Source: Shigella phage ESh32
Sequence record: ON528742
Length of the DNA: 64,000 nt
Direction: 5' to 3' (one strand)
In this document: in pieces, positions 13,527 through 34,417 of the stretch
How the letters are laid out: every line of letters starts with the position of its first letter
Position numbering within the stretch: position 1 is the first letter of the stretch
Made by a program: the position numbers and the translations under genes
Notes under the pieces: generated by a model
What the model was told of the DNA's origin: nothing
Seen by the model: only the letters and a program-made list of their open reading frames with translations
The model's database searches: none

Positions 13527-16500
13527 TTATTCAACCCATTCAAATTTAACCGTTTTATTCACTGGGTCAGGAACAATGCGAACATTACCAATTCGTAAGA
13601 AATCACGAATAGTAAGATTACCCATTATAGCATTATCAGATGGTAAAGCACCAATATCAGACGGTTGAGGAGGGTTACCTCCGTCAAATACCTGAACAAA
13701 ACTTGACCAAGAGTTTTTGGTTTTCTGCCATGTGCGTGTCCAACGAGTGGTACGAGCTTCTGGGGTCGTTGGATAAGTAATCCAATCTTGGTAAAGCGAA
13801 TCAAGTGTATTACCAAACTGAGTCAATGTACCAGGAGATTTAACTTCTTCGCCACGTTCTAAGTATGGAAGTCCAGTCACTTCATTAGTTTTTTCAACCA
13901 TTTTAAAATAACCAGGGAATTGATTATAAGTGGCCGAATCGTTAATATCAATTGACCAGAATCCTACAGTATCAGATGTTGGTGCGCGGGTATATAAATC
14001 AGATGTTTTAGTGCCCTGAGAACGAATTCTCGAGTTAACAGTCAAACCACCTGAATTTATAGTAGCACCTTTGGCAATGATTAAGCTTTCACCAATCGTT
14101 ACTTGACCAGATGCATTATTAATAGCTAAAGGACGTAATCCATTAAATCCACCAGTCTGATCACCCGATGCAGTAAGCATAAAATAGGTGTTAGCAGCAT
14201 CATTACGAATAAAGAATCCATAATCACCGTTTATTGCTCTAAAAGCATTCGACGATTTACTGATAAATTCGCCATTAGCAGTAACTGAACTACCGAATGT
14301 TGCAACGCCGTTCGCATTCAAAGAACCTAAAGCATTCACATTTATTGGCATTACAGTACCATTAATGCTAAATGCTATATTACCATCTTTATCGCGTTGA
14401 GAATAAAAGTGATAAGATGTTTCATCACTAACTTCAAATACAGTAGAACGCGTTGCATCTGATTCACCACTAAATTGATTACCCCACACTCTAATAGTCA
14501 CCGTCTGTGCTTGGTTAGTTCCAGTTTGAGGTCCTTTCTCAAAAATCAGATGAGTTTCTGTTCCAGTATTAGAAATAGTTAGTACACTATTTGCCGAAAC
14601 TGAACCACCAAACGTAGCAGTACTAGATGATACAAGAGGGGCACTCAGATTCGTTTGTTGGGTTAAGGTTAGTGAACCATTAACTGTCTGTGCAATATCC
14701 CTACGAATGAACTGAGATGAATCTAGACCATCTAATAAATTACTATCTACCGCTTTTGCTTTTAACGGCAGATAATTTGCTAATACACGGTTTAATTCAT
14801 ATGGTGATACTGCATAGTTATTTTTCTCATACAGTTCTAAATCTTGGGTAGAACCGGCTGTATCATTACCAACGAATGTAATTGAACCAGACGAAGTTTT
14901 AACAAAACCTCTTACTAGGGTAGTAGCTGCCCAGGTAGGTTCACTCTGCACGATCCATTTTAAATTTTTTGGAGATACAGCAGTATTTGCCGATGTTCCA
15001 GCAACAGTTTCGGTTTGTGTTGCAACTTTAATAACACCTTCTTGTGCTTCAGTAGATTTAGTACCTAAAAGCTTTTTAGGAGTTATTAAAACATTATCTA
15101 ATGTTCCTGCAGCAGCTTCGACCTGTGTAGCTACACGAAGTGTACCACGTTGTGTCTCATTTGCTTCAAGAATATTAAGGGTATAATGGTCCCAGAGAGT
15201 TCCTGATTCAATTAATCCAGATAGAGCAACAACAGAAGTACGATCAGTACTATTAAATCTGGTTTTAATTTTTAATGGTGTAGAGATACGAGTATCGTCG
15301 ACGCCTGCGTCGAATTCAACTTGTGTCGCAATTTCAGCTATACCACTTAAACTTTCAGTTGCTCTACGGTCATTTAAAGTTTTAGGAGTGACTGCACGAG
15401 TATAATCAGTTCCTGTATTAACTTCACTTTGCGTAGCAATTTCAATTAATCCAATTCTTCCATCAGTTGATGTCTTTTTATGTAACGTTTCTGGTGTTAC
15501 AACCGCATTTGCCCATCCTTCTTGACTCTGTCCAGCAATTACTTCGCTTTCAACTGCTAAAATTACTGCACCTTGTTGCGTTGGAGTAGCTTTATATTGA
15601 TCTAAAGCTTTAGGTGAAACAACTAAATTATTAGTGTTTTTATTATAAACGTTTGTACCATTTAATTCACGACTAGAAGCTGGAGTAGCACCTGCAGTAG
15701 ATACAAAGGTTACAATACCAGATAATGATTCAGAACCTTGACGAGCTTGAAGCTTTTTAGGAGTGATGATTGTAGTATCATCGGTTCCTGCATTAGTTTC
15801 TTGCTGTGTAGCAATTTCAGCAACACCTCTGCGAGTTTCAGTAGCTGTTCTTTCATTCAGCTTTTTAGGAGTGATGATAATATCATCAGCAAAAGAGAAT
15901 GTAGTATCCTGGTTAACTTGAGCAGTAGTTGCTATTCTTGCGATACCTCTACGAGTTTCAGTAGCAGTACGGTTAGCTAACGTTTCTGGAGTAATTGCTA
16001 ATTCTTTTTGCGGAGAATTTTCTAAATCGACGTTAGCTTGAGCCTGTGTAGCTAAAGCAATTACGCCTAATCTTGCTCTAGTAGAATCATTTAAAGAATC
16101 TACTCTTTCTACGGTTGGAACATTTTGCTGTACAACCCAATATTTTCCATCAGAATCTTCAATATAAGCGAGCTGTAAAACTGGAACATAATTAGTTTCA
16201 CCATTAAAAACTAATTCTTGGACTGTAACCCATTCAGCTTCAGGCGGATATTCTGAGCGTTTTGGGAATTGCAGCAATTGAACTGAAGAAGCAATTTTAT
16301 CTTCACCTGCAGCTTTGATTTTAACCGTTTGTCCTTTTCTCATGTAATTCATGGAAATTTTGACAGTATCACCAACAGAAATATCAGTCGGAAGCTGAAG
16401 TTCAATTGTCTGAGCTGTTCCGTTATTCGCGCCAAATACCATGACTTCTTCATTTGGACGAATATTAGAATTAGTCGTTATAATGCGTAAACGTGCTTTA

Positions 16501-17396
16501 CTATCCCCGTCAAACAATCTCCACAATTTCTCATTATCATCAAACATTAAGAAACCATCAATAGATGTACGGCCTTCAATGGAATGAGTTCCAACTTCTT
16601 GTACTGAAGTTGTTTCATCATATGTAGTAACAATTGTGTGATAAAGAGGATTTAATTTATCCAAATCAACGAAATTAATAATATCGCCATGATTGGCAAA
16701 TCTTGGAAGTTTAATATTAATTGCTGAAGCAGAAGTAAATCTACGTACGATAAAATCGTTTGATTGCGCCTGATAGAGACTCGCAGGCGTTACAACTACA
16801 GCTTCTCTACTATAATCAGCGACATACATTTGCCACAGACGATTACTAAAAATTAAAACTATCTGTGATTTTGGATGAGTCATTAGTACTGAACGTACTT
16901 GCTGACCTCTAAAATTTACAATGCTTTGTACCGGAGCTGTAATTAAAACTTGATTAACTCCAGGTTTTCCTCCAATATCTTGGAGAACGATAGTATCACC
17001 GTCAATTGGGGTAGATGGTAAAGTAAATGTAATGTCATTACCAGCTGCAGTATCAACTGAAATTGATTCACCCGATTTTAATTGATAAGGTCCTGATGAA
17101 ACAGTTGTCCAGTTTGCATCAGTACGTAACGCTCTCCAGCGTACGCTATTAAAAGCTCCTGCTGGTTTTGGAATATCATTTATAGCAGCCCAAAAGCGGT
17201 TATCATAAATGATTACAAAATCTTTTAAATATCCACGAGTTGGATCGTATTGTTGAACTGTGTTTTCTTGAATTAAGTAATCAACGTTAACACCGTCAGT
17301 TCCTACGGCACGATCAGCTAAAGCTACGTTGATTATTTTATCACCACCTGCGTCCAGACCATCTTCTGCTCTGAACTTTCTTTTAATCTCGGCCAT
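13527..17396 (-). CDS. 34: long tail fiber proximal subunit gp34 (1289 aa)
   Basis: MAEIKRKFRAEDGLDAGGDKIINVALADRAVGTDGVNVDYL...; 1289 aa as in T4 gp34. Confidence 0.95.
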   Translation of the reverse strand: MAEIKRKFRAEDGLDAGGDKIINVALADRAVGTDGVNVDYLIQENTVQQYDPTRGYLKDFVIIYDNRFWAAINDIPKPAGAFNSVRWRALRTDANWTTVSSGPYQLKSGESISVDTAAGNDITFTLPSTPIDGDTIVLQDIGGKPGVNQVLITAPVQSIVNFRGQQVRSVLMTHPKSQIVLIFSNRLWQMYVADYSREAVVVTPASLYQAQSNDFIVRRFTSASAINIKLPRFANHGDIINFVDLDKLNPLYHTIVTTYDETTSVQEVGTHSIEGRTSIDGFLMFDDNEKLWRLFDGDSKARLRIITTNSNIRPNEEVMVFGANNGTAQTIELQLPTDISVGDTVKISMNYMRKGQTVKIKAAGEDKIASSVQLLQFPKRSEYPPEAEWVTVQELVFNGETNYVPVLQLAYIEDSDGKYWVVQQNVPTVERVDSLNDSTRARLGVIALATQAQANVDLENSPQKELAITPETLANRTATETRRGIARIATTAQVNQDTTFSFADDIIITPKKLNERTATETRRGVAEIATQQETNAGTDDTTIITPKKLQARQGSESLSGIVTFVSTAGATPASSRELNGTNVYNKNTNNLVVSPKALDQYKATPTQQGAVILAVESEVIAGQSQEGWANAVVTPETLHKKTSTDGRIGLIEIATQSEVNTGTDYTRAVTPKTLNDRRATESLSGIAEIATQVEFDAGVDDTRISTPLKIKTRFNSTDRTSVVALSGLIESGTLWDHYTLNILEANETQRGTLRVATQVEAAAGTLDNVLITPKKLLGTKSTEAQEGVIKVATQTETVAGTSANTAVSPKNLKWIVQSEPTWAATTLVRGFVKTSSGSITFVGNDTAGSTQDLELYEKNNYAVSPYELNRVLANYLPLKAKAVDSNLLDGLDSSQFIRRDIAQTVNGSLTLTQQTNLSAPLVSSSTATFGGSVSANSVLTISNTGTETHLIFEKGPQTGTNQAQTVTIRVWGNQFSGESDATRSTVFEVSDETSYHFYSQRDKDGNIAFSINGTVMPINVNALGSLNANGVATFGSSVTANGEFISKSSNAFRAINGDYGFFIRNDAANTYFMLTASGDQTGGFNGLRPLAINNASGQVTIGESLIIAKGATINSGGLTVNSRIRSQGTKTSDLYTRAPTSDTVGFWSIDINDSATYNQFPGYFKMVEKTNEVTGLPYLERGEEVKSPGTLTQFGNTLDSLYQDWITYPTTPEARTTRWTRTWQKTKNSWSSFVQVFDGGNPPQPSDIGALPSDNAIMGNLTIRDFLRIGNVRIVPDPVNKTVKFEWVE

Positions 17397-17430
17397 TCTC
17401 CCGGGCTCCTATTGTGTTTTCAATAATAAG

Positions 17431-17438
17431 TATTTATA
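17431..17438 (-). promoter_or_regulatory. late promoter (TATAAATA on minus strand) for gene 34
   Basis: Exact TATAAATA on minus strand about 35 nt upstream of gene 34 ATG. Confidence 0.65.
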
Positions 17439-17441
17439 CTT

Positions 17442-17471
17442 GTTTACTTTAAGATTTGGATGGTATATAAT
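17442..17471 (+). promoter_or_regulatory. early promoter for rnh: -35 GTTTAC 17442-17447, -10 TATAAT 17466-17471
   Basis: Motif read directly; divergent from the gene 34 late promoter. Confidence 0.55.
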
Positions 17472-17500
17472 AGAAATCTCACTAATTGAACGAGGTTCAT

Positions 17501-18418
17501 ATGGATTTAGAAATGATGCTGGATGAAGATTACAAAGAAGGAATTTGCTTTATTGACTTTAGTCAAATTGCGCTTTCAACTGCTTTAGTAAACTTCCCAG
17601 ATAAAGAAAAAATTAATTTATCAATGGTTCGTCATTTGATATTGAACTCAATTAAGTTTAATGTCAAAAAAGCAAAAACGCTTGGATACACTAAAATTGT
17701 ACTGTGTATTGATAACGCGAAATCTGGATACTGGCGTCGTGATTTCGCGTATTATTACAAGAAAAACCGTGGAAAAGCACGAGAAGAATCGACTTGGGAC
17801 TGGGAAGGTTATTTTGAATCCAGCCATAAAGTTATAGATGAATTGAAAGCTTATATGCCATACATTGTTATGGATATTGATAAGTATGAAGCAGATGACC
17901 ACATTGCTGTTCTTGTTAAAAAGTTCTCTTTGGAAGGACACAAGATTTTAATCATTTCATCGGATGGTGACTTCACTCAGCTTCACAAATATCCAAATGT
18001 TAAGCAATGGTCACCGATGCATAAGAAATGGGTTAAAATTAAAAGCGGTTCTGCTGAAATTGACTGTATGACTAAAATCCTTAAAGGCGACAAAAAGGAT
18101 AACGTTGCTTCAGTTAAAGTACGATCTGACTTTTGGTTTACCAAAGTTGAAGGTGAACGAACCCCTTCAATGAAAACTTCAATCGTTGAAGCTATTGCTA
18201 ATGACCGTGAGCAAGCTAAGGTGCTTCTCACAGAATCTGAATATAATCGTTATAAAGAAAATTTAGTTCTAATTGATTTTGATTATATTCCTGATAATAT
18301 TGCTTCAAACATTGTGAATTACTATAATTCATATAAATTACCACCGCGTGGCAAAATTTATTCATATTTTGTAAAAGCGGGTCTTTCTAAATTAACTAAT
18401 AGCATTAATGAATTTTGA
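17501..18418 (+). CDS. rnh: RNase H / 5'-3' exonuclease (305 aa)
   Basis: Start MDLEMMLDEDYKEGICFIDFSQ at ATG 17501 with SD GAGGT (track start is TTG); FEN-family acidic motifs; 305 aa as T4 RNase H. Confidence 0.9.
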   Translation: MDLEMMLDEDYKEGICFIDFSQIALSTALVNFPDKEKINLSMVRHLILNSIKFNVKKAKTLGYTKIVLCIDNAKSGYWRRDFAYYYKKNRGKAREESTWDWEGYFESSHKVIDELKAYMPYIVMDIDKYEADDHIAVLVKKFSLEGHKILIISSDGDFTQLHKYPNVKQWSPMHKKWVKIKSGSAEIDCMTKILKGDKKDNVASVKVRSDFWFTKVEGERTPSMKTSIVEAIANDREQAKVLLTESEYNRYKENLVLIDFDYIPDNIASNIVNYYNSYKLPPRGKIYSYFVKAGLSKLTNSINEF

Positions 18419-18426
18419 GGTGAATA

Positions 18427-18696
18427 ATGGCTAAAAAAGAAATGGTTGAATTTGATGAAGCTATCCATGGCGAAGACTTGGCTAAATTTATTAAAGAAGC
18501 ATCTGATCATAAACTGAAAATTTCCGGTTATAATGAATTGATTAAAGATATTCGAATTCGTGCCAAAGATGAACTTGGTGTTGATGGCAAGATGTTTAAT
18601 CGTCTTTTGGCTCTATATCATAAAGATAACCGTGATGTGTTTGAAGCTGAAACTGAAGAGGTAGTTGAACTTTATGACACAGTTTTCTCTAAATGA
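18427..18696 (+). CDS. dsbA: DsbA, dsDNA-binding late transcription enhancer (89 aa)
   Basis: MAKKEMVEFDEAIHGEDLAKFIKEASDHKLKISGYNEL...; 89 aa; synteny rnh-dsbA-33. Confidence 0.85.
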   Translation: MAKKEMVEFDEAIHGEDLAKFIKEASDHKLKISGYNELIKDIRIRAKDELGVDGKMFNRLLALYHKDNRDVFEAETEEVVELYDTVFSK

Positions 18697-19012
18697 TATT
18701 CGTCCGGTCGATGAGGCCGGGCTTTCAGAAAAAGAACTTTCAATTAAGAAAGAAAAGGATGAAATTGCAAAGCTTCTTGACCGCCAAGAAAATGGATTTA
18801 TTATTGAAAAAATGGTAGAAGAGTTTGGAATGAGTTATCTTGAAGCTACAACAGCATTCTTGGAAGAAAACTCTATTCCTGAAACTCAATTTGCTAAATT
18901 TATTCCTTCGGGTATAATTGAAAAAATTCAGTCAGAAGCTATTGACGAAAATCTTTTACGTCCTTCTGTTGTTCGTTGTGAAAAAACTAATACATTAGAT
19001 TTTCTACTATGA
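18674..19012 (+). CDS. 33: late transcription co-activator gp33 (112 aa)
   Basis: MTQFSLNDIRPVDEAGLSEKELSIKKEKDE... from ATG 18674; 112 aa; overlaps dsbA 3' end. Confidence 0.85.
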   Translation: MTQFSLNDIRPVDEAGLSEKELSIKKEKDEIAKLLDRQENGFIIEKMVEEFGMSYLEATTAFLEENSIPETQFAKFIPSGIIEKIQSEAIDENLLRPSVVRCEKTNTLDFLL

Positions 19013-19662
19013 TTAAACTCCGCATGCCTGCTGGTGGTGAAAGATACATTGATGGTAAATCAGTTTATAAATTATACTTAATGATAAAACAGCATATGAA
19101 TGGAAAGTATGATGTAATTAAGTATAATTGGTGCATGCGGGTGTCTGATGCCGCTTATCAAAAGCGAAGGGATAAGTATTTTTTTCAGAAGTTATCAGAA
19201 AAATATAAATTAAAGGAACTTGCTTTAATCTTTATAAGTAATTTGGTTGCTAACCAAGATGCTTGGATTGGTGACATCTCTGACGCTGATGCACTTGTGT
19301 TTTATCGTGAATATATCGGACGCTTAAAGCAAATTAAATTTAAGTTTGAAGAAGATATTCGCAACATTTATTATTTTAGTAAAAAAGTTGAAGTTTCTGC
19401 TTTTAAAGAAATTTTTGAATATAATCCAAAAGTTCAATCAAGTTATATTTTTAAACTACTTCAATCGAATATAATTTCGTTTGAGACGTTTATCTTGCTT
19501 GATTCGTTTTTAAATATAATTGATAAACATGATGAACAGACTGATAATTTAGTCTGGAATAATTATTCTATAAAGTTAAAGGCTTATAGAAAAATTTTAA
19601 ATATTGATTCACAGAAAGCCAAAAGTGTTTTCATTGAAACTGTGAAATCTTGTAAGTATTGA
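19009..19662 (+). CDS. 59: helicase loader gp59 (217 aa)
   Basis: MIKLRMPAGGERYIDGKSVYKLYLMIKQHMNGKYDV...; 217 aa; ATGA coupling to 33. Confidence 0.9.
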   Translation: MIKLRMPAGGERYIDGKSVYKLYLMIKQHMNGKYDVIKYNWCMRVSDAAYQKRRDKYFFQKLSEKYKLKELALIFISNLVANQDAWIGDISDADALVFYREYIGRLKQIKFKFEEDIRNIYYFSKKVEVSAFKEIFEYNPKVQSSYIFKLLQSNIISFETFILLDSFLNIIDKHDEQTDNLVWNNYSIKLKAYRKILNIDSQKAKSVFIETVKSCKY

Positions 19663-19663
19663 T

Positions 19664-20296
19664 ATGAATATAGTATATTGGTTTACATTTGAAGACCGTG
19701 TCAAAAATAAGACTCCGCCATACTACTATATCGGTAGTAAATTAAATTGCTCATTTGAGAACGGAATAATATATGACTCTTCCGGAAAGGAATACTGGAG
19801 CTCATGTAAACAAAAAAGATTTTTGAATGCGCTAATGCTTCAAAAACCGAGCGTTAAAATAATTCAAATTGATGATGACTTGGATGTTATTGAAGCAGAA
19901 CGAAAATACCAACTTGAAGTAAATGCCAGAGATAATCCAGACTATTTTAATCTGGTATATGCTGGTGGTGGATTTGGTGTGAGTGGTGAAACTCATCCAG
20001 CCAAAGACCCGGAAGTTAGAGAGCATATGAGATTGGCTAATTATATGAACCGTGACGATTTTAGACCTTGGAAAACATCACGAGCTAATATAGAGTCTTG
20101 GAAATTATCTCATATTGCTTACGAGAATTATGTGTTATTATTATCCTCTAATCTGTACGGTAAAACTCCCGGATGGCGAAGAGTTAAAGGTAATATAAAT
20201 ATAACTGATACAACTGCTAAATCGATGGTAAAGTATTTCAACTCAGGTTGGATACCTCTCGAAGACCCAGAGTATTGCGAATTATGCCAGCTATGA
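19664..20296 (+). CDS. segG: GIY-YIG homing endonuclease, SegG-like (210 aa)
   Basis: N-terminal IVYWFTFEDR...PPYYYIGSK GIY-YIG-type motif; located between 59 and 32 where T4 carries segG. Confidence 0.65.
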   Translation: MNIVYWFTFEDRVKNKTPPYYYIGSKLNCSFENGIIYDSSGKEYWSSCKQKRFLNALMLQKPSVKIIQIDDDLDVIEAERKYQLEVNARDNPDYFNLVYAGGGFGVSGETHPAKDPEVREHMRLANYMNRDDFRPWKTSRANIESWKLSHIAYENYVLLLSSNLYGKTPGWRRVKGNINITDTTAKSMVKYFNSGWIPLEDPEYCELCQL

Positions 20297-20353
20297 GGTA
20301 AAGTGTCATAGCACCAACTGTTAATTAAATTAAATTAAAAAGGAAATAAAATG
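20297..20353 (+). promoter_or_regulatory. gene 32 autoregulatory translational operator (pseudoknot region + AU-rich unstructured leader through start codon)
   Basis: GGTAAAGTGTCATAGCACCAACTG followed by TTAATTAAATTAAATTAAAAAGGAAATAAAATG, the classic gp32 binding leader. Confidence 0.6.
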
Positions 20354-21256
20354 TTTAAACGTAAATCTACTGCTGAACTTGCTGCACAAATGGCTAAACT
20401 GAATGGCAATAAAGGTTTTTCTTCTGAAGATAAAGGCGAGTGGAAACTGAAACTCGATAATGCGGGTAACGGTCAAGCAGTAATTCGTTTTCTTCCGTCT
20501 AAAAATGATGAACAAGCACCATTCGCAATTCTTGTAAATCACGGTTTCAAGAAAAATGGTAAATGGTATATTGAAACATGTTCATCTACCCATGGTGATT
20601 ACGATTCTTGCCCAGTATGTCAGTACATCAGTAAAAATGATTTGTACAACACTGACAATAAAGAGTACGGTCTTGTTAAACGTAAAACTTCTTACTGGGC
20701 TAACATTCTTGTTGTAAAAGACCCAGCTGCTCCAGAAAATGAAGGTAAAGTATTTAAATATCGTTTCGGTAAGAAAATCTGGGATAAAATCAACGCAATG
20801 ATTGCAGTTGATGTTGAAATGGGTGAAACTCCGGTTGATGTAACTTGTCCGTGGGAAGGTGCTAACTTTGTACTGAAAGTTAAACAAGTTTCTGGATTTA
20901 GTAACTACGACGAATCTAAATTCCTGAATCAATCTGCGATTCCAAACATTGACGATGAATCTTTCCAGAAAGAACTGTTCGAACAAATGGTTGACCTTTC
21001 TGAAATGACTTCTAAAGATAAATTCAAATCGTTTGAAGAACTGAATACTAAATTCGGTCAAGTTATGGGAACTGCTGTGATGGGCGGTGCCGCTGCAACT
21101 GCTGCTAAGAAAGCTGATAAAGTTGCTGATGATTTGGATGCATTCAATGTTGATGACTTCAATACAAAAACTGAAGATGATTTTATGAGCTCAAGCTCTG
21201 GTAGTTCATCTAGTGCTGATGACACGGACCTGGATGACCTTTTGAATGACCTTTAA
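20351..21256 (+). CDS. 32: single-stranded DNA-binding protein gp32 (301 aa)
   Basis: [49 protein letters not shown]...; Zn-binding [10 protein letters not shown]; acidic C-terminus; 301 aa. Confidence 0.95.
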
Positions 21257-21278
21257 CAGATTATATTACTAATTAATT

Positions 21279-21304
21279 GGGGACCTCTAGGGTCCCCTTT
21301 TTTA
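21279..21304 (+). terminator. rho-independent terminator after gene 32 (GGGGACC-loop-GGTCCCC + T7)
   Basis: 7-bp GC stem plus T-run read directly. Confidence 0.65.
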
Positions 21305-21327
21305 TTTCAAAAATTTTTCACAAAACA

Positions 21328-21357
21328 GTTTACATCCTTGTCCTTCCATGGTACTAT
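21328..21357 (+). promoter_or_regulatory. T4-type early promoter: -35 GTTTAC 21328-21333, -10 TACTAT 21352-21357
   Basis: Motif read directly; leader TACAACTATC shared with promoter at 4067. Confidence 0.55.
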
Positions 21358-21400
21358 ACAACTATCGGCAATACTGCTGATGATTAAAGAGGAAAATAAT

Positions 21401-21631
21401 ATGGCTAAAGTTGATATTGACATCATTGATTTTGAATATATTGAAGAGATTATTCGTAATCGTTATCCTGAACTTAGTATCACAAGTATTCATGATGATC
21501 CCAATTATTGCAATTTTTCTATTGTCATTGAAGGTCCTCTTGAAGACCTTACCCGCTTTATGGCTAATGAATATTGCGATGGCATGGATTCTGAAGACGC
21601 AGAATTTTACATGGGACTGATTGAACAATAA
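21401..21631 (+). CDS. hypothetical acidic protein (76 aa)
   Basis: ATG 21401 with SD AAGAGGAAAA; track ORF 21338 starts upstream of the promoter -10. Confidence 0.5.
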
Positions 21632-21677
21632 TTATCAAGGGGCTATTTGATAGCCCCGTTAAAATGAGGAAATCAAA

Positions 21678-22064
21678 GTGGAAGTTGGAAAAACTTATAT
21701 CATTAACCCTTTATTTAAAAATGACTTTGCTAACGAGTGCCGTTGCAATGTAATGATGCTAAATTTAATAGAGAAGCACGGACCTAGTTTTGTTGTAGAT
21801 GAAATGGAAAGTGATGATTGTGCTGGTGACTGTGTGGTACGTGTAACTATGGAAGACGGCACTGAATACATGGCGGGTGGCCCACTTGAGACGTATTTTG
21901 AGATTTACTCTGAAGAATTCAAATACTTTACTGAGGTAACTTTAGAAAAGCCTCAATCCGCTAATGAAGGTATAGTTTCTGGCGTAACAAAAATTCACTG
22001 CATTGTTGACGAAAACAATGTAGATGAAATCATTGAACTTTTGCGAAAAACTTTTAAGGCCTAA
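21678..22064 (+). CDS. hypothetical protein (128 aa, GTG start)
   Basis: ORF track; GTG at 21678 with SD GAGGAAA 7 nt upstream; Cys-rich (CRC...CAGDC). Confidence 0.5.
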   Translation: MEVGKTYIINPLFKNDFANECRCNVMMLNLIEKHGPSFVVDEMESDDCAGDCVVRVTMEDGTEYMAGGPLETYFEIYSEEFKYFTEVTLEKPQSANEGIVSGVTKIHCIVDENNVDEIIELLRKTFKA

Positions 22065-22065
22065 T

Positions 22066-22326
22066 ATGACTAAAGATGATTTCCTGGATGCGGTAGAAAA
22101 AGCTAGTGAGAAATTTGAAGTGATGGGTGTACGGGTCCATAAAGACAGAAATTACGGACTCGATATTCAAACGTATTCATTATGGCTTGTGGGTGAACAC
22201 AGTCTTGTAACCAGTTTAGTTATGGGTGTCGATACCTATCCTCTATTGGTTAAGTTCAGAAATATGGAAAAGGCTACTAAAGAAATGATTAAGCTTGGTA
22301 AGTGGCTCGATAAAATTCAAAAATAA
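22066..22326 (+). CDS. hypothetical protein (86 aa)
   Basis: ATG 22066 two nt after upstream stop; track ORF 22024 begins earlier in the same frame. Confidence 0.45.
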   Translation: MTKDDFLDAVEKASEKFEVMGVRVHKDRNYGLDIQTYSLWLVGEHSLVTSLVMGVDTYPLLVKFRNMEKATKEMIKLGKWLDKIQK

Positions 22327-22328
22327 TT

Positions 22329-22358
22329 GTTTACAACAGGGTAGTAGTGTGATACTAT
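22329..22358 (+). promoter_or_regulatory. T4-type early promoter: -35 GTTTAC 22329-22334, -10 TACTAT 22353-22358
   Basis: Motif read directly; leader TACCCTATCAACTAC shared with promoter at 926. Confidence 0.55.
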
Positions 22359-22386
22359 TACCCTATCAACTACTGAGGAGAATAAA

Positions 22387-22629
22387 ATGAGATTACAACG
22401 CCAAAGCATCAAAGATTCAGAAGTTAGAGGTAAATGGTATTTTAATATCATCGGTAAAGATTCTGAACTTATTGAAAAAGCTGAACATCTTTTACGTGAT
22501 ATGGGATGGGAAGATGAATGCGATGGATGTCCTCTTTATGAAGACGGAGAAAGCGCAGGATTCTGGATTTACCATTCTGATGTTGATCAGTTTAAAGCTG
22601 ATTGGAAAATTGTGAAAAAGTCTATTTGA
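22387..22629 (+). CDS. hypothetical protein (80 aa)
   Basis: ORF track; SD GAGGAGAA. Confidence 0.55.
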   Translation: MRLQRQSIKDSEVRGKWYFNIIGKDSELIEKAEHLLRDMGWEDECDGCPLYEDGESAGFWIYHSDVDQFKADWKIVKKSI

Positions 22630-22639
22630 GGAAAATATT

Positions 22640-22995
22640 ATGTCTGACATTCATGTAGCTGGAATTGCTCGAGTAAGTATTCGTTGCCAACTTAAAACTG
22701 CGCCTGGGACGGCTTATATTAATTTATCACACGACCTATGTTCTAGTGAAAGACCATTAACTGGTGTAATTACGTTTTACGCTGGAGTTGGCGGAAACGA
22801 ATTTACTGTAGGCGAATTTGTTGGCTGTAAATTAAAAGTTCAGAAAAATGTGTTAGAACTTTTTAGCGATCTTTATGGTGATAGTGATGAAGTTTTTGAT
22901 GAAATCGCGCAAGCAGTTAACAGAGGAATGGTAATTTTAGTTAAAATGATTAAAGATAGCGGATTTGCTTCTGGCCCCTTTCAGTGGGAGGTAAT

Positions 22996-22999
<4 letters not shown>
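22640..22999 (+). CDS. hypothetical protein (119 aa)
   Basis: ORF track; SD TGAGGAAAA. Confidence 0.55.
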
Positions 23000-23825
<826 letters not shown>

Positions 23826-23845
23826 AATAACGCGTGGCGGAAAAT

Positions 23846-24193
23846 ATGAACTTTAATTATTACCCTATTCTATTAGAAAAAGACGCGAAACAACCAAAAT
23901 GGCAGGGTCCTCAGTTTATTAAAGGCGTCTATCAATTAGTAGTTCCTAAAGACAAGATTTATAGTAGTTGTTTCACTGAATCCGCTTGCAGTATTTTCGG
24001 TAATAGTTCTCCGTATTGGAATTTTGATATAAAACTGGATAGAAATATCGATATTTGGTTGAAAGCCATGGATATTGGCAATATTACGTTTGATGAGAAT
24101 AATTATCATATTATTGGTCGCTTTTCTAAACGCGGTAAAGAATTATATTTCACTCCTGAAATCGAAAGAAAATTTGATGCTAAACCGTATTGA
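23846..24193 (+). CDS. hypothetical protein (115 aa) lying between frd and td
   Basis: ATG 23846 (track start 23834 is GTG); no recognisable motif; occupies a junction where T4 frd and td overlap. Confidence 0.5.
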   Translation: MNFNYYPILLEKDAKQPKWQGPQFIKGVYQLVVPKDKIYSSCFTESACSIFGNSSPYWNFDIKLDRNIDIWLKAMDIGNITFDENNYHIIGRFSKRGKELYFTPEIERKFDAKPY

Positions 24194-24219
24194 TTATTTA
24201 GCTTCATAAAATGTATTAT
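24190..24219 (+). promoter_or_regulatory. possible sigma70-type promoter upstream of td (-35 TTGATT, 18 bp, -10 TATTAT)
   Basis: Motif read directly; weak call. Confidence 0.3.
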
Positions 24220-24238
24220 AATTTATATAAGGTACTAA

Positions 24239-24787
24239 ATGAAACAATACCAAGATTTAATTAAAGACATTTTTGAAAATGGCTATGAAACCGATGACCG
24301 AACAGGCACAGGAACAATTGCTTTGTTCGGTACTAAATTGCGCTGGGATTTAACTAAAGGTTTTCCTGCGGTAACAACTAAGAAGCTCGCCTGGAAAGCT
24401 TGCATTGCTGAGCTAATATGGTTTTTATCAGGAAGCACAAATGTCAATGATTTACGATTAATTCAGCATGATTCGTTAATCCAAGGCAAAACAGTCTGGG
24501 ATGAAAATTACGAAAATCAAGCAAAAGATTTAGGATACCATAGCGGTGAACTTGGTCCAATTTATGGAAAACAGTGGCGTGATTTTGGCGGTGTAGATCA
24601 AATTATAGAAGTTATTGATCGTATTAAAAAACTGCCAAATGATAGGCGTCAAATTGTTTCTGCGTGGAATCCAGCTGAACTTAAATATATGGCATTACCG
24701 CCTTGTCATATGTTCTATCAGTTTAATGTGCGTAATGGCTATTTGGATTTGCAGTGGTATCAGCGATCAGTAGATGTTTTCTTGGGT
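24239..24787 (+). CDS. td: thymidylate synthase, exon 1 (183 codons)
   Basis: MKQYQDLIKDIFENGYETDDRTGTGTIALFG... TS fold; exon ends ...CTTGGGT at the group I 5' splice site. Confidence 0.9.
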
Positions 24788-25803
24788 TAATTGAGGCCTG
24801 AGTATAAGGTGACTTATACTTGTAATCTATCTAAACGGGGAACCTCTCTAGTAGACAATCCCGTGCTAAATTGTAGGACTGCCCTTTAATAAATACTTCT
24901 ATATTTAAAGAGGTATTTATGAAAAGCGGAATTTATCAGATTAAAAATACTTTAAACAATAAAGTATATGTAGGAAGTGCTAAAGATTTTGAAAAGAGAT
25001 GGAAGAGGCATTTTAAAGATTTAGAAAAAGGATGCCATTCTTCTATAAAACTTCAGAGGTCTTTTAACAAACATGGTAATGTGTTTGAATGTTCTATTTT
25101 GGAAGAAATTCCATATGAGAAAGATTTGATTATTGAACGAGAAAATTTTTGGATTAAAGAGCTTAATTCTAAAATTAATGGATACAATATTGCTGATGCA
25201 ACGTTTGGTGATACATGTTCTACGCATCCATTAAAAGAAGAAATTATTAAAAAACGTTCTGAAACTGTTAAAGCTAAGATGCTTAAACTTGGACCTGATG
25301 GTCGGAAAGCTCTTTACAGTAAACCCGGAAGTAAAAACGGGCGTTGGAATCCAGAAACCCATAAGTTTTGTAAGTGCGGTGTTCGCATACAAACTTCTGC
25401 TTATACTTGTAGTAAATGCAGAAATCGTTCAGGTGAAAATAATTCATTCTTTAATCATAAGCATTCAGACATAACTAAATCTAAAATATCAGAAAAGATG
25501 AAAGGTAAAAAGCCTAGTAATATTAAAAAGATTTCATGTGATGGGGTTATTTTTGATTGTGCAGCAGATGCAGCTAGACATTTTAAAATTTCGTCTGGAT
25601 TAGTTACTTATCGTGTAAAATCTGATAAATGGAATTGGTTCTACATAAATGCCTAACGACTATCCCTTTGGGGAGTAGGGTCAAGTGACTCGAAACGATA
25701 GACAACTTGCTTTAACAAGTTGGAGATATAGTCTGATCTGCATGGTGACATGCAGCTGGATATAATTCCGGGGTAAGATTAACGACCTTATCTGAACATA
25801 ATG
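24788..25803 (+). mobile_element. group I self-splicing intron of td (1016 bp) carrying the I-TevI ORF
   Basis: Intron begins TAATTGAGGCCTGAGTATAAGGTGACTTATAC and ends ...ATCTGAACATAATG; splicing restores ...DVFLG/LPFNIASYA... giving a 286-aa TS. Confidence 0.85.
24919..25656 (+). CDS. I-TevI: intron-encoded GIY-YIG homing endonuclease I-TevI (245 aa)
   Basis: MKSGIYQIKNTLNNKVYVGSAKDFEKRWKRH... GIY-YIG motifs, Zn finger (CKCG...CSKC), C-terminal DNA-binding region; 245 aa. Confidence 0.9.
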   Translation: MKSGIYQIKNTLNNKVYVGSAKDFEKRWKRHFKDLEKGCHSSIKLQRSFNKHGNVFECSILEEIPYEKDLIIERENFWIKELNSKINGYNIADATFGDTCSTHPLKEEIIKKRSETVKAKMLKLGPDGRKALYSKPGSKNGRWNPETHKFCKCGVRIQTSAYTCSKCRNRSGENNSFFNHKHSDITKSKISEKMKGKKPSNIKKISCDGVIFDCAADAARHFKISSGLVTYRVKSDKWNWFYINA

Positions 25804-26115
25804 CTTCCATTTAATATTGCATCATATGCTGCGTTAGTTCATATTGTAGCTAAGATGTGTAATCTTATTCCTGGAGATTTGATATTTTCTGGCGGTAATA
25901 CTCATATCTATATGAATCACGTAGAACAATGTAAAGAAATTTTACGTCGTGAACCTAAAGAGCTTTGTGAACTGGTAATAGGCGGATTGCCTTATAAATT
26001 CCGTTATCTTTCTACTAAAGAACAATTGGAATACATTCTTAAACTCAGGCCTAAAGATTTCGTTCTCAAAGATTATCAGTCCCACGGTGTCTTGAAAGGA
26101 AAAATGGCGGTATAA
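25804..26115 (+). CDS. td: thymidylate synthase, exon 2 (103 codons)
   Basis: LPFNIASYAALVHIVAKM... continues TS frame; track ORF start 25801 is the intron-terminal ATG. Confidence 0.9.
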   Translation, partial: LPFNIASYAALVHIVAKMCNLIPGDLIFSGGNTHIYMNHVEQCKEILRREPKELCELVIGGLPYKFRYLSTKEQLEYILKLRPKDFVLKDYQSHGVLKGKMAV

Positions 26116-26138
26116 TTTTAATTTAATTGCGAGGATAT

Positions 26139-26402
26139 ATGATTTTACGATTTAAAGATACTTCTGGTGTCGTTCTTTTTACACTTCCTAATCCAAGTGA
26201 GTTAGAAGTTCCAGGACCAAATCAGCCTATTATCATTTATGGCAAAAAATATTATACTCATAAAATGACCCGTGAGTATTTTGATAATAAAATTTCTACA
26301 GTTAAAACTTCTTCAGATTGTTACTATGATATTACTGTTTTAACGGAAAAACAATATGACGAATTATCACCGCGCGGGCCGTCTATGCCAGGTAGTGAAT
26401 AA
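26139..26402 (+). CDS. hypothetical protein (87 aa)
   Basis: ATG 26139 with SD GAGGATATAT; track ORF 26127 starts 12 nt upstream. Confidence 0.5.
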
Positions 26403-26682
26403 ATATAAATCTGACTTTGATGTTAATATTCACCGCGGTACATTTTGGGGAAATTACGTCGGTAAAGATGCTGGCAGCCGGGAGGCTGCCATTGAATTAT
26501 TCAAAAAAGATTTTATACGTCGAATTAAATCCGGAGAAATAACTAAAGCACATTTAGAGCCTTTACGTGGAATGAGGCTAGGATGCACATGTAAACCAAA
26601 GCCGTGTCATGGTGATATAATAGCTCATATAGTTAACCGATTGTTTAAAGACGATTTTCAAGTTGAGGACTTATGCAATTAA
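26356..26682 (+). CDS. hypothetical Cys/His-containing protein (108 aa)
   Basis: ORF track; 47-nt overlap with upstream ORF so start uncertain; ends 10 nt into nrdA. Confidence 0.45.
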
Positions 26683-28937
26683 TTAATGTTATCAAAAGTA
26701 GTGGTGTTTCTCAGAGCTTTGACCCGCAAAAAATTATTAAAGTTTTATCTTGGGCAGCTGAAGGAACATCTGTAGATCCTTATGAATTATATGAAAATAT
26801 TAAATCATATCTCCGTGATGGAATGACCACTGATGACATTCAAACCATTGTAATTAAGGCTGCTGCGAATTCTATTTCAGTTGAAGAGCCTGATTATCAA
26901 TACGTAGCTGCACGCTGTTTAATGTTTGCTCTTCGTAAGCATGTTTACGGACAATATGAACCGCGTTCATTTATTGACCATATTTCTTACTGCGTAAATG
27001 AAGGTAAATACGACCCTGAATTATTGTCAAAATATTCAGCAGAAGAAATTACATTTTTAGAATCAAAAATTAAGCACGAGCGGGATATGGAATTTACTTA
27101 TTCCGGGGCGATGCAATTAAAAGAAAAATATCTAGTTAAAGATAAAACCACTGGTCAAATTTATGAAACTCCACAGTTTGCATTTATGACTATTGGAATG
27201 GCATTGCATCAAGATGAACCTGTTGATAGATTAAAACATGTTATCCGTTTTTATGAAGCGGTATCTACTCGACAGATTTCATTGCCAACTCCTATTATGG
27301 CTGGTTGCCGTACTCCAACCCGGCAGTTTAGTTCATGCGTTGTTATTGAGGCAGGTGATTCATTAAAGTCTATCAATAAGGCTTCCGCTTCAATTGTTGA
27401 ATATATCTCTAAACGCGCTGGAATTGGTATTAACGTTGGTATGATTCGTGCTGAAGGTTCTAAGATTGGCATGGGTGAAGTACGCCATACTGGTGTTATT
27501 CCTTTTTGGAAACATTTTCAGACTGCTGTTAAATCATGCTCACAGGGTGGAATTCGTGGCGGCGCTGCTACTGCTTATTATCCTATTTGGCATTTGGAAG
27601 TTGAAAATCTTCTTGTTTTGAAAAATAACAAAGGCGTAGAAGAAAACCGCATTCGTCATATGGATTATGGTGTTCAACTGAATGATTTGATGATGGAACG
27701 TTTTGGAAAGAACGATTACATTACTTTGTTTAGTCCCCATGAAATGGGCGGAGAGCTTTATTATTCTTATTTTAAAGACCAAGACCGTTTCCGTGAATTA
27801 TACGAAGCAGCAGAAAAAGACCCTAATATTCGTAAAAAGCGTATTAAAGCTCGTGAACTATTTGAATTGCTCATGACTGAACGCTCAGGAACAGCAAGGA
27901 TTTATGTACAGTTCATTGATAATACGAATAACTATACTCCGTTTATTCGTGAAAAGGCACCTATTCGTCAGAGTAACTTGTGCTGTGAAATTGCTATTCC
28001 AACAAATGATGTGAATAGTCCTGATGCTGAAATTGGATTGTGTACTCTCTCTGCATTCGTACTGGATAATTTTGACTGGCAAGACCAAGATAAAATTAAT
28101 GAATTGGCAGAAGTCCAGGTTCGTGCTCTTGATAATCTTTTGGATTACCAAGGATATCCAGTTCCTGAAGCAGAAAAAGCTAAAAAGCGTCGTAACCTCG
28201 GTGTAGGTGTTACTAACTATGCAGCTTGGTTGGCAAGTAACTTTGCTTCTTATGAAGATGCTAACGATTTAACACATGAACTATTTGAGAGATTACAGTA
28301 TGGACTCATTAAAGCATCCATTAAACTCGCCAAAGAAAAAGGACCTTGTGAATATTATTCAGACACTCGTTGGTCTCGAGGCGAATTACCTATCGACTGG
28401 TACAATAAAAAGATTGACCAAATCGCAGCTCCAAAATACGTTTGTGACTGGTCGTCGCTGCGGGAAGACCTTAAGCTCTTTGGCATCCGTAATAGCACAC
28501 TATCAGCACTTATGCCATGTGAGTCATCTTCCCAAGTTTCTAACAGTACAAACGGTATCGAGCCTCCACGTGGACCAGTCTCTGTTAAAGAATCAAAAGA
28601 GGGTTCCTTTAATCAAGTCGTGCCCAATATTGAACATAACATAGACCTATATGATTATACATGGAAATTAGCTAAGAAAGGTAATAAACCTTATCTTACG
28701 CAGGTAGCTATTATGCTGAAATGGGTGTGTCAATCAGCTTCAGCGAATACATATTATGACCCACAGATTTTTCCAAAAGGAAAGGTTCCAATGTCAATAA
28801 TGATTGATGACCTTTTGTATTTTTGGTATTTTGGCGGAAAAAATTTCTATTATCATAATACCCGTGATGGTTCTGGTACTGATGATTATGAAATAGAAAC
28901 TCCAAAAGCTGAAGATTGTTCATCCTGTAAATTATGA
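26673..28937 (+). CDS. nrdA: aerobic ribonucleotide reductase large subunit NrdA (754 aa)
   Basis: ATP-cone N-terminus, catalytic NLCCEI and C-terminal CSSCKL tail; 754 aa. Confidence 0.95.
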   Translation: MQLINVIKSSGVSQSFDPQKIIKVLSWAAEGTSVDPYELYENIKSYLRDGMTTDDIQTIVIKAAANSISVEEPDYQYVAARCLMFALRKHVYGQYEPRSFIDHISYCVNEGKYDPELLSKYSAEEITFLESKIKHERDMEFTYSGAMQLKEKYLVKDKTTGQIYETPQFAFMTIGMALHQDEPVDRLKHVIRFYEAVSTRQISLPTPIMAGCRTPTRQFSSCVVIEAGDSLKSINKASASIVEYISKRAGIGINVGMIRAEGSKIGMGEVRHTGVIPFWKHFQTAVKSCSQGGIRGGAATAYYPIWHLEVENLLVLKNNKGVEENRIRHMDYGVQLNDLMMERFGKNDYITLFSPHEMGGELYYSYFKDQDRFRELYEAAEKDPNIRKKRIKARELFELLMTERSGTARIYVQFIDNTNNYTPFIREKAPIRQSNLCCEIAIPTNDVNSPDAEIGLCTLSAFVLDNFDWQDQDKINELAEVQVRALDNLLDYQGYPVPEAEKAKKRRNLGVGVTNYAAWLASNFASYEDANDLTHELFERLQYGLIKASIKLAKEKGPCEYYSDTRWSRGELPIDWYNKKIDQIAAPKYVCDWSSLREDLKLFGIRNSTLSALMPCESSSQVSNSTNGIEPPRGPVSVKESKEGSFNQVVPNIEHNIDLYDYTWKLAKKGNKPYLTQVAIMLKWVCQSASANTYYDPQIFPKGKVPMSIMIDDLLYFWYFGGKNFYYHNTRDGSGTDDYEIETPKAEDCSSCKL

Positions 28938-28988
28938 TATAATTTGACTCACGGACGAGTCACCAACTATTAACTAAGCGGAAAATTT

Positions 28989-30167
28989 ATGAGCACAGTT
29001 TTTAATACAAATCCAGTTGATGTTTTAAAAGAACCTATGTTTTTTGGTTCAGGTCTTGGTATTGCGCGTTATGATATTCAACGTCATAAAGTTTTTGAAG
29101 ATTTAACCGAAAAGCAGTTGTCATTTTTCTGGCGTCCTGAAGAAGTAAACTTAATGATGGATGCTGCACAGTTTAATAAGCTTCCTCAATATCAGCAGAA
29201 TATTTTTACTAATAATCTGAAGTATCAATCACTTCTAGATAGCATTCAGGGTCGTGCACCGTCTGCTGTACTTATGTCATTGATTTCAGACCCAAGCCTT
29301 GATACATGGGTTGCTACATGGACTTTTAGTGAAACCATTCACAGTCGTTCATACACTCATATTATGCGAAATCTTTATACTGATCCGTCAAAGGTATTTG
29401 ATGAGATTGTATTAGATAAAGCTATCATGAAACGTGCTGAATCTATTGGTCGTTATTATGATGATGTTCTGGACAAGACACGTATTTGGGAAAACGCCAA
29501 AGAAAACTTTAGTTATTTTGCTGAAAATGAATATGATTTAGAAGCATATTCAAACAGTCTCACTCATTTGGAAGAATGTAAACGAGACCTGATGAAGTCG
29601 CTTTATCTCTGTCTGCACGTTATCAATGCTCTGGAAGCTATTCGTTTTTATGTATCTTTCGCATGTACCTTTAACTTCCATAAGAACATGGAAATCATGG
29701 AAGGTAATGCCAAGATTATGAAGTTCATTGCACGTGATGAGCAGCTTCATCTTAAAGGTACACAATATATTATTCGTCAACTTCAATCTGGTACTGATGG
29801 CGATGAATGGGTTAAAATTGCTCAAGAGTGTGAACAAGAAGCAGTTGATATTTTCATGGAAGTTAACCGCCAAGAAAAAGATTGGGCAGTTCATTTATTT
29901 AAAGATGGCGATGTTCCTGGATTAAATACAAATAGCATGTGGAGCTTTATTGATTACTTAACTGTATCTCGTATGAAACAGTGTGGTCTTCCATGCCCAA
30001 TTACCGATGCTCCGGTTAAACATCCGTATCCTTGGATTCGTGAATACCTTAATTCTGATAATGTTCAATCCGCGCCGCAAGAAGTAGAATTGTCATCTTA
30101 TCTTGTTGCACAGATTGATAATGATGTTGATGATAAAGTTATGATGAGTTTTAAAAAATACTTTTAA
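28989..30167 (+). CDS. nrdB: ribonucleotide reductase small subunit NrdB (392 aa), uninterrupted
   Basis: Di-iron/tyrosyl radical protein fold (…WTFSETIHSRSYTHI…); continuous ORF, no intron. Confidence 0.9.
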   Translation: MSTVFNTNPVDVLKEPMFFGSGLGIARYDIQRHKVFEDLTEKQLSFFWRPEEVNLMMDAAQFNKLPQYQQNIFTNNLKYQSLLDSIQGRAPSAVLMSLISDPSLDTWVATWTFSETIHSRSYTHIMRNLYTDPSKVFDEIVLDKAIMKRAESIGRYYDDVLDKTRIWENAKENFSYFAENEYDLEAYSNSLTHLEECKRDLMKSLYLCLHVINALEAIRFYVSFACTFNFHKNMEIMEGNAKIMKFIARDEQLHLKGTQYIIRQLQSGTDGDEWVKIAQECEQEAVDIFMEVNRQEKDWAVHLFKDGDVPGLNTNSMWSFIDYLTVSRMKQCGLPCPITDAPVKHPYPWIREYLNSDNVQSAPQEVELSSYLVAQIDNDVDDKVMMSFKKYF

Positions 30168-30172
30168 GGAGT

Positions 30173-30194
30173 GGGCCGCAAGGCCCATTTTATT
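30173..30194 (+). promoter_or_regulatory. GNRA-tetraloop hairpin (GGGCC-GCAA-GGCCC) + U-tract between nrdB stop and denA start; candidate attenuator / split-RBS element
   Basis: Hairpin lies between the only SD-like AAGGAG (30163-30168) and the denA ATG at 30195. Confidence 0.4.
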
Positions 30195-31782
<1,588 letters not shown>

Positions 31783-31785
31783 GCT

Positions 31786-31815
31786 GTTTACAAGTCCCTC
31801 GTGTTGTGTTATAGT
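31786..31815 (+). promoter_or_regulatory. T4-type early promoter for alc: -35 GTTTAC 31786-31791, -10 TATAGT 31810-31815
   Basis: Motif read directly. Confidence 0.55.
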
Positions 31816-31839
31816 AGTCTTACTGACATAACATGAGGA
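31786..31839 (+). repeat. 54-bp promoter/leader cassette, copy A (identical to 47109-47162)
   Basis: Exact 54-nt identity GTTTACAAGTCCCTCGTGTTGTGTTATAGTAGTCTTACTGACATAACATGAGGA found at both loci. Confidence 0.8.
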
Positions 31840-31846
31840 CTTTATG

Positions 31847-32350
31847 ATGGATTTGCAGCTTATTACTACTGAAATGGTCGTTGAAGCATACGGTGATACT
31901 ACAGATGGGATTTCTGTATTCAAAGGAAATCGTCGAGTTGGATATATCACCGATCTTAAGAAAGATTTAGCTAAGCAAGTCAAGCGGAAAACGACCATTA
32001 AAGAATATCGAAATCGTCGTCTTGAGCAAGCCCGTGATATGCTTCCTGATGCGGTTGAGGAGATGAAAGTCTTTTTAGAAAATCAACTCGCTAAGTATGA
32101 TTGTGAAGTGTTTATTAATCAGACTCAACCTAATGTTCATATCAATAGTTGTAAATGCTACATTATTGTTAATCCTTTGACAGGAAAACACCGCCTTGGG
32201 ATTAGTAATCCAAATCGTAGTGCATCGGATATGGCAGAAGATGTTGAGGCATGCTTTAAAATTTCTAAATCTCCAGCTGAACATCATATTTTAATTAACG
32301 GTCTTTCTCAAGACGATATTATAGAGGTTATTAAAACTTTATGCATGTAA
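31847..32350 (+). CDS. alc: Alc, host transcription elongation terminator (167 aa)
   Basis: MDLQLITTEMVVEAYGDTTDGISVFKGNRRVGY...; synteny after rnlA; alternative ATG at 31844. Confidence 0.8.
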   Translation: MDLQLITTEMVVEAYGDTTDGISVFKGNRRVGYITDLKKDLAKQVKRKTTIKEYRNRRLEQARDMLPDAVEEMKVFLENQLAKYDCEVFINQTQPNVHINSCKCYIIVNPLTGKHRLGISNPNRSASDMAEDVEACFKISKSPAEHHILINGLSQDDIIEVIKTLCM

Positions 32351-32694
32351 GTAATTTTACAGCTGGATTGCTATTACTTGTAATAGCATTTGGCGGAACA
32401 TCTATTATTTTAAAAAATAAGGTAGAAAGATTAGAAACGTCTGTTGTAGAAATTACAAAAACGGCCAATGAAAACGCCTTAGCATTAAATAATTTGCGAA
32501 TTCAGTATAATTATATTGATGCGATGAATAATAAAAATCGTGAGGCGATTGCTGCTATTGAGCGTGAAAATGAAAAACTGCGCAAAGATGCAAAGAAGGC
32601 GGATGTGGTGGCTCGTAAGCCAGGATTGGTTGAAAAACAAATCAACAACTCCTTCAACAAGTTCGCAGAAGACATCCAGGACCTTTCTAAATGA
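32341..32694 (+). CDS. i-spanin (inner-membrane spanin subunit; PseT.3-like, 117 aa)
   Basis: N-terminal TM FTAGLLLLVIAFGGTSIIL followed by coiled-coil-like periplasmic domain; immediately upstream of a lipoprotein gene. Confidence 0.6.
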   Translation: MHVSNFTAGLLLLVIAFGGTSIILKNKVERLETSVVEITKTANENALALNNLRIQYNYIDAMNNKNREAIAAIERENEKLRKDAKKADVVARKPGLVEKQINNSFNKFAEDIQDLSK

Positions 32695-32990
32695 TTAAAT
32701 TATCTGCAGTAATATTATCTATTGGTCTTCTAGTTGGTTGTTCGACAAAGCCTCTAGAAGTAAAGAAAGAAACAGTTCATCCTAATTGGCCTGTGCAAAT
32801 AAAGTCATATGACGAAGCTAAACTATCTTGGCAAGTTAAAGTTATTGATGGTAAAGCTTGGGTAGGTATGCCATTTGAAGATTCTCAGGAATTTCGTATT
32901 TGGCTTAATGATGTAAAACGATATGTACATGACCAGAAAACTATGATATGTTATTATCGTCAAGAGCTAAAAGAGGATAAATGTAAATGA
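32691..32990 (+). CDS. o-spanin lipoprotein (PseT.2-like, 99 aa)
   Basis: Signal peptide with lipobox MIKLSAVILSIGLLVGC; C-terminal Cys; ATGA-coupled to the i-spanin. Confidence 0.65.
   Translation: MIKLSAVILSIGLLVGCSTKPLEVKKETVHPNWPVQIKSYDEAKLSWQVKVIDGKAWVGMPFEDSQEFRIWLNDVKRYVHDQKTMICYYRQELKEDKCK

Positions 32991-33217: not shown

Positions 33218-34417
<1,200 letters not shown>

Follow-up and report, generated by a model that had tools for sequence, protein, structure and literature searches.

The open reading frame that separates frd from td in Shigella phage ESh32, here termed X1, is a genuine, strongly conserved protein-coding gene, and comparison with related phages suggests that it is an old resident of the frd–td interval of T4-like phages, lost from T4, and not a new insertion. 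On the same comparison the T4 frd/td junction, where the two flanking genes meet directly, appears to be a minority, derived state. The explanation that best accounts for the observations overall, to which we give a probability of about 0.6, is that X1 is real, that T4 lost it by deletion and that its product has an accessory role exerted by binding a partner.

The window, i.e. the whole 64,000-nucleotide stretch of sequence record ON528742 that was analysed, is a Tequatrovirus (T4-like) segment with ~95–96% identity over 20 kb to phages such as ECP52, ECO4 and PST, none of which it matches exactly; the top coverage match to its positions 15000–35000 is labelled 'Pseudomonas phage vB_PSGBLB0006' (host P. 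aeruginosa), an odd label for a Tequatrovirus-like sequence. The ORF list and the sequence agree in placing 413 bp between frd and td, and this gap holds a 115-codon ORF at the place originally described for it, in a gap then put at about 410 bp (Table 1). An alternative in-frame start, GTG at 23834, would give a product of 119 residues. The expectation that X1 has its own Shine–Dalgarno sequence holds in part, in that a GGA/GGCGGA element precedes the ATG, but the element is weaker than had been claimed; it is kept in five allele-A (X1-type) phages, and the SV76 record annotates a 3-nt ribosome-binding site at the matching place.

Of the flanking genes, frd is annotated as such in RB27 and T2 relatives, and td and I-TevI are annotated in T4. 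The window Frd has 85.6% amino acid identity to T4 Frd, and the product of td exon 1 has 99.5% to T4 Td. Over 23241–26115 the identities are mosaic, with Frd only ~86% identical to its counterparts in both RB27 and T4, X1 100% identical to that of RB27 and Td 99% identical to both, which points to a recombination boundary within or just past frd. Upstream of frd, three ORFs at 22024–22326 (100 aa, no Pfam match), 22640–22999 (119 aa, DUF7247) and 22984–23241 (85 aa, no Pfam match) have no counterpart in the syntenic gene 32–nrdB region of T4; all three are present in RB27 and only one in T2/SV76. An Rfam scan of 23000–26600 gave no match at the gathering threshold, not even a group I intron despite the presence of the td intron (24786–25800), a miss that is likely due to the endonuclease ORF splitting the model.

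Table 1. Features of the frd–td region, in positions of the window.
Feature	Position	Strand	Remarks
frd (dihydrofolate reductase), 194 aa	23241–23825	+	Stop TGA 23823–23825; from ORF list and sequence
9-bp direct repeat TAAATGAAA, left copy	23819–23827	+	Includes the frd stop codon; read from sequence
Weak X1 ribosome-binding site GGCGGA	23836–23841	+	GGA 4 nt 5' of the ATG; from sequence
X1, 115-aa ORF	23846–24193	+	ATG 23846, stop TGA 24191–24193; PHROG 1928
X1–td spacer, 45 bp	24194–24238	+	Sigma-70-like match; td ribosome-binding site AAGGT 24229–24233
9-bp direct repeat TAAATGAAA, right copy	24236–24244	+	Includes the td start codon 24239–24241; from sequence
td (thymidylate synthase)	24239–26115	+	Split by a group I intron with I-TevI 24919–25656; from ORF list

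The pattern of substitution in X1 is that of a protein under constraint. Compared with the copy in Escherichia phage JQD51, the most diverged Tequatrovirus-like copy available (84% DNA identity), 34 differences are synonymous and 10 non-synonymous, giving dS 0.92, dN 0.037 and a dN/dS of 0.04, which argues for strong purifying selection on the protein. The exact protein is present on 341 contigs in a public collection, and a CDS of the same length is annotated in RB27, SV76/T2 and AugustSocin as well as in many other records. In JQD51 (L010:239–1193) the frd stop codon is lost, so that the frd frame extends into the start region of X1 by 13 codons.

The stretch between X1 and td had been credited with a promoter-like element. 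A sigma-70-like match is indeed present (TTGATT at 24190–24195, an 18-bp gap and TATTAT at 24214–24219; nine of 12 positions), but it is no better than chance, since the same scan yielded 8 sites over 2 kb where shuffled sequence gives 8.0, and the 32-bp piece of spacer in which it lies varies in RB27 and is absent from JQD51. With the match at chance level and not conserved, a promoter before td is not claimed. A MotA-box-like AGCTTCA (24200–24206) was also considered and set aside, as it departs from the TGCTT core and reads AGCTCCA in RB27. The predicted RNA fold of the spacer is unremarkable, with no unusual structure (z −0.97).

The distribution of X1 is broad and its position fixed. By tblastn the protein is found in 554 phage records, with one copy per genome in each, and 362 of these carry it at 90% amino acid identity or more, including T2, T6, RB6, RB14 (whose record names it RB32ORF229c), RB27 and RB68. 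The other 192, from phages of Klebsiella, Enterobacter, Kosakonia, Erwinia and Citrobacter, have a homologue at 30–46% identity. Besides Tequatrovirus, at least five Tevenvirinae genera, among them Kanagawavirus, Jiaodavirus, Roskildevirus, Moonvirus and Karamvirus-type phages, have such a homologue in the frd–td interval, frequently with a tandem paralogue next to it. All of the distant loci that were inspected have the homologue in this interval, as frd–X1–td or frd–X1–X2–td (X2 being the paralogue); they are those of Kosakonia phage 305 (Kanagawavirus), Mineola (Jiaodavirus), Cronus (Roskildevirus) and CF1 (Moonvirus), of two metagenome contigs and of MF036690/MZ348424. The location between frd and td thus recurs in the window and in every related locus inspected, and an HMM of the X family found no paralogue elsewhere among all six-frame ORFs of the window. 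Overlap of the X1 or X2 frame with one or both of the flanking genes is seen in Kosakonia 305, Mineola, Cronus, CF1, phi1_146055 and loci L011–L014. Between genera, X1 identity is 32–46%, compared with 45–49% for frd and 73–78% for td; X1 and frd have thus diverged to a broadly similar extent, as expected under vertical descent.

Annotation of the gene in public genomes is uneven. X1 is mislabelled 'dihydrofolate reductase' in several of them, and three BASEL phages list it wrongly as a 'putative homing endonuclease', the records with such errors including JLBYU31, APTC-EC-2A, IsaacDaniel, AugustSocin, WilhelmHis and KarlGJung.

Three alternatives to the X1-only state of the interval can be recognised. 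The statement that in T4 the frd stop overlaps the td start as ATGA is borne out by NC_000866, in which the two genes share 4 nt, frd running to 145109 and td beginning at 145112. Using a 100-bp probe across this junction, at an E-value threshold too strict for anything but a contiguous match, the direct T4-type junction was found in only 35 records, comprising, T4 entries aside, T4T, RB55, RB59, vB_EcoM_112, G28, F1, FN, HY03, SG1, G2133, JEP6, FL12, FL18, ECO07P1/P3 and CJY920. ECO07P1 has the precise T4-type junction and yet a td 5' end only 80.5% identical to that of T4, and in CJY920 likewise the figure is only ~80%, so that the gene-less state occurs in at least two td backgrounds, by way of either recurrence or recombination.

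A second state is seen in many Tequatrovirus records that match only the flanks of an 851-bp query, spanning ~624 bp, and carry in place of X1 a 68-aa ORF unrelated to it, here termed gene B (PHROG 9550, annotated as of unknown function). Gene B begins at the ATG within the frd AAATGA, and its other end, TAATGA, lies on the td start. The ATG within AAATGA serves in T4 as the td start, and in X1-type phages it opens a two-codon mini-ORF (ATG AAA TAA; 23823–23831 in the window). At 90% identity or more, gene B is present in ~135 records of Tequatrovirus and Dhakavirus, including Dhakavirus JS98; it is also seen in some Klebsiella phages (79% identity) and in Phapecoctavirus (40–43%), and loci with the gene include those of Yersinia phage fPS-65 (L008:807–1013) and Klebsiella phage phi1_146055 (L015:1801–2007) as well as L009 and L016. 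Since Phapecoctavirus belongs to another phage family, it may be gene B that is horizontally mobile.

The third state involves X2, which is paralogous to X1, lies in tandem with it and contains an insertion, PTIEQYKRNPxKY. The relationship is supported by hhalign (probability 97.6–97.7%, E ~2e-12) and by matches of X2 to an HMM built from X1 sequences only (E 1e-11 to 1e-19); X2 and a 144-aa ORF of Cronus both match PHROG 1928. A complete frd–X1–X2–B–td array, with frames overlapping or abutting, is present in phi1_146055 (L015:541–2867), and one metagenome contig (L014) also has the complete array. The frd–td interval is thus shown to be the home of the X family, holding from none to three small genes (X1, X2 and B) according to lineage: most Tequatrovirus phages, including that of the window, T2 and T6, keep X1 only, about a quarter have B only, and T4 and its closest kin have none of the three. 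Differential loss from a multi-gene interval is the simplest reading of this variety.

The sequence at the edges of the gap suggests how the T4 state may have arisen. The 9-bp repeat TAAATGAAA is conserved in RB27, SV76/T2 and AugustSocin, i.e. together with the window in four allele-A phages, and removal of one copy with the intervening DNA (417 bp) leaves GTATATAAATGAAACAATACC, which is the exact T4 junction. It is likely that a 417-bp deletion between the two copies, which lie over the frd stop and the td start, produced the T4 state; such an event would join frd to td in the classic ATGA overlap. A B-type allele could equally be the source of the T4 junction, since deletion between its AATGA repeats would yield an identical product. 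The flanks of T4 point in different directions, the td 5' end being 95–96.5% identical to X1-type phages versus 91% to B-type, and the frd 3' end 95.5–96.5% identical to X1-type and 96–98% to B-type phages. As td is nearer to the X1-type and frd as near or nearer to the B-type, the flanks do not settle the parental allele.

X1 encodes a protein of 13.6 kDa (pI 8.5, GRAVY −0.55) that belongs to a small Tevenvirinae-restricted family, PHROG 1928, annotated as of unknown function. The match to the PHROG 1928 profile (E 8.4e-36) covers residues 4–111 of X1 and positions 2–125 of 126 in the profile, and the protein is 100% identical to those of T2, T6, RB14 and RB27. A phmmer search of 1.84 billion representatives returned only 17 clusters, of ~100–119 aa, together with one 838-aa noise match, and a profile search of a 5.8-billion-sequence set brought in nothing further except hypothetical proteins of the X2 type on T4-like contigs. 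Across the family Q16, W19, G27, G91, K95 and G97 are invariant and N79, F93 and F102 nearly so, the most conserved element being a C-terminal hairpin, IIGRFxKxGxxxxF. The statement that X1 has no recognisable motif is borne out by Pfam, NCBIfam and PADLOC, none of which gave a match for X1, X2 or B.

An AlphaFold2 model of X1, built on a 19-sequence alignment, is confident (pLDDT 90.9, pTM 0.84) and has eight strands and one helix (residues 68–76), but among structures solved up to April 2026 it has no significant analogue, the best Foldseek E being 0.31 with TM ≤0.36. A conspicuous share of the weak matches are OB-fold nucleic-acid binders (SSB, RPA, S1, HIN, Teb1 and the RuvA N-domain), a leaning of the predicted model that may serve as a lead only. 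In BFVD the matches were all uncharacterised proteins of T4-like phages, relatives of X1 and X2. A borderline match of the family profile to a dynein heavy-chain hairpin among PDB sequences (E 0.015, per-domain 2.2) was judged to be due to chance.

Against this background three other accounts of the ORF need to be weighed. That X1 is a chance open frame in an AT-rich spacer, the spacer mattering only as the promoter region of td, is suggested by the sigma-70-like and MotA-box-like matches directly upstream of td, but the first of these is at chance level and not conserved, and the account is already refuted by the substitution pattern; the existence of a protein-level family of 17 clusters at 50% identity and the confident fold prediction also speak against it, leaving it a negligible probability. 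A free-standing homing endonuclease, or the remnant of one, is scarcely more probable. It would fit the 'putative homing endonuclease' annotation in AugustSocin, WilhelmHis and KarlGJung (BASEL), the presence/absence polymorphism of the locus and the proximity of I-TevI, 0.7 kb downstream; however, there is no match to GIY-YIG, HNH, LAGLIDADG or other nuclease families (at a Pfam E ≤ 1 the window protein gave none, and 23 family members gave only scattered single-member noise), nor is there a nuclease among the structural matches. The sporadic distribution of homing-endonuclease genes is likewise absent, each genome having a single X1, invariably in the frd–td interval, across six genera or more; this fixed position and the strong purifying selection are unlike what is seen with the sporadic seg/mob genes.

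The original prediction, that X1 is a recent accessory cassette with an anti-defence or host-takeover role, inserted at a conserved, overlapping frd/td junction, has more in its favour, although it too is now very improbable. T4 does have the overlap and no gene there, the 9-bp direct repeats flanking X1 could be read as a target-site duplication, the junction is polymorphic and can hold an unrelated gene, B, with relatives in Phapecoctavirus, and X1 has a GC content of 32% compared with 37–39% in the flanking genes. Comparison with the other T-even phages confirms the contrast for T4, but an identical protein is present at the same place in T2, T6, RB14, RB27 and RB32; the ORF thus occurs at this position in T4-type references, none of which gives it a known function. 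Diverged homologues occupy this interval in five or more further genera, with divergence tracking that of frd, the gene-bearing state outnumbers the T4 state by 362 to 35 records, and no mobility gene or motif is present. A target-site duplication is not credible, because the repeats consist of the functional frd-stop and td-start contexts, which X1-type, B-type and T4-type phages all have. Nor is this the most insertion-like locus of the window, as had been supposed: the syntenic T4 region also lacks three further ORFs that lie up to 2.2 kb upstream, so that X1, as one of four such ORFs, is not specially insertion-like. The polarity proposed for a recent insertion is thus largely refuted, and loss from T4 is the reading that we prefer.

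As to function, X1 is dispensable, since T4 and ~170 relatives are without the gene, and in this sense its description as an accessory gene stands. PADLOC gave 0 matches for X1, and no likeness in sequence or structure to characterised anti-defence or defence proteins was found; a new anti-defence function may be compatible with this lack of matches to known ones. The frd–td–nrd transcripts of T4 are pre-replicative and, T4 itself having no X1, we infer the timing of X1 by analogy with them: it would be co-transcribed with frd and td in a pre-replicative (early/middle) nucleotide-metabolism unit. Being small, basic and β-rich, and without catalytic motifs, the protein would most likely bind a partner, whether a nucleic acid or another protein, and so work as an accessory factor that is dispensable on laboratory hosts and selected for in nature, a proposal of low confidence. 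Our best guess, likewise of low confidence, is that X1 is a dispensable, non-enzymatic binding protein made prior to replication.

More specific roles are possible for such a protein, and we guess that a host-directed or nucleic-acid-binding accessory role should be ranked first and one in a Frd/Td dNTP complex second. The adjacency to frd and td could mean that X1 has a role in nucleotide metabolism, e.g. X1 and X2 could be auxiliary subunits or regulators of the thymidylate/folate branch of dNTP synthesis, bridging or modulating Frd and Td, which T4 has dispensed with. This proposal, which seems to us unlikely, is favoured by the occurrence of the X family only between frd and td in every lineage examined and never elsewhere, by the lack of a paralogue in the rest of the window, and by the overlap of frames with frd and/or td, which is compatible with translational coupling. 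However, T4 makes dTMP and replicates normally without X1, ~170 relatives also do without it, and the protein has no nucleotide- or folate-binding motif; moreover, T4-like genomes are generally collinear, so adjacency is weak evidence. Somewhat less likely again, in the detailed form that follows, is that X1 and X2 constitute a structurally new family acting as a host-directed factor, for instance in counter-defence or as a nucleic-acid binder, whose loss in T4 affects host range or sensitivity to defence. If this were so, loss of X1 in T4, and not in T2 or T6, would contribute to the known host-range and defence-sensitivity differences among T-even phages. The general form of the proposal, an accessory protein that binds a partner, is the one retained here.

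The ATGA overlap of frd and td in T4 is often cited as an example of translational coupling between two enzymes of the same pathway. The present comparison suggests a different reading of its origin, in that the overlap appears to be derived, a scar of deletion, as opposed to ancestral; in most T-even relatives the junction is occupied by one to three small genes. X1, strongly constrained and yet dispensable in the laboratory, and with no significant analogue among solved structures, is a clean target for gain- and loss-of-gene work comparing T2/T6 with T4.

Comparison with known systems places X1 as follows. Databases already list the gene, as PHROG 1928 and in hundreds of records as a hypothetical protein, and a literature search found nothing on it; the members of PHROG 1928 (RB32ORF229c, RB27_228, CPTSV76_041 of T2/SV76, and those of T6 and RB14) are the same gene at the same frd–td position and show no difference from X1 of the window, all of these sources listing a hypothetical protein. 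The GoF/MotB.1/Frd.2 proteins are small, non-essential early proteins of Tevenvirinae with a predicted LSm-like β-barrel (Kim et al. 2025, PMC12152347), and X1 resembles them in being small, non-essential and Tevenvirinae-restricted. Frd.2 itself sits 1.8 kb upstream in the same transcription unit; kinship of X1 to its LSm-like family was considered and rejected, hhalign of the X-family profile with the window Frd.2 giving a probability of 0.2% (E 0.34). The seg/mob genes of T-even phages are like X1 in that their presence or absence at an intergenic junction is polymorphic between close genomes. X1 differs from them in having neither a nuclease motif nor a nuclease fold, in keeping its position across genera and in that its absence from some phages is better explained by deletion.
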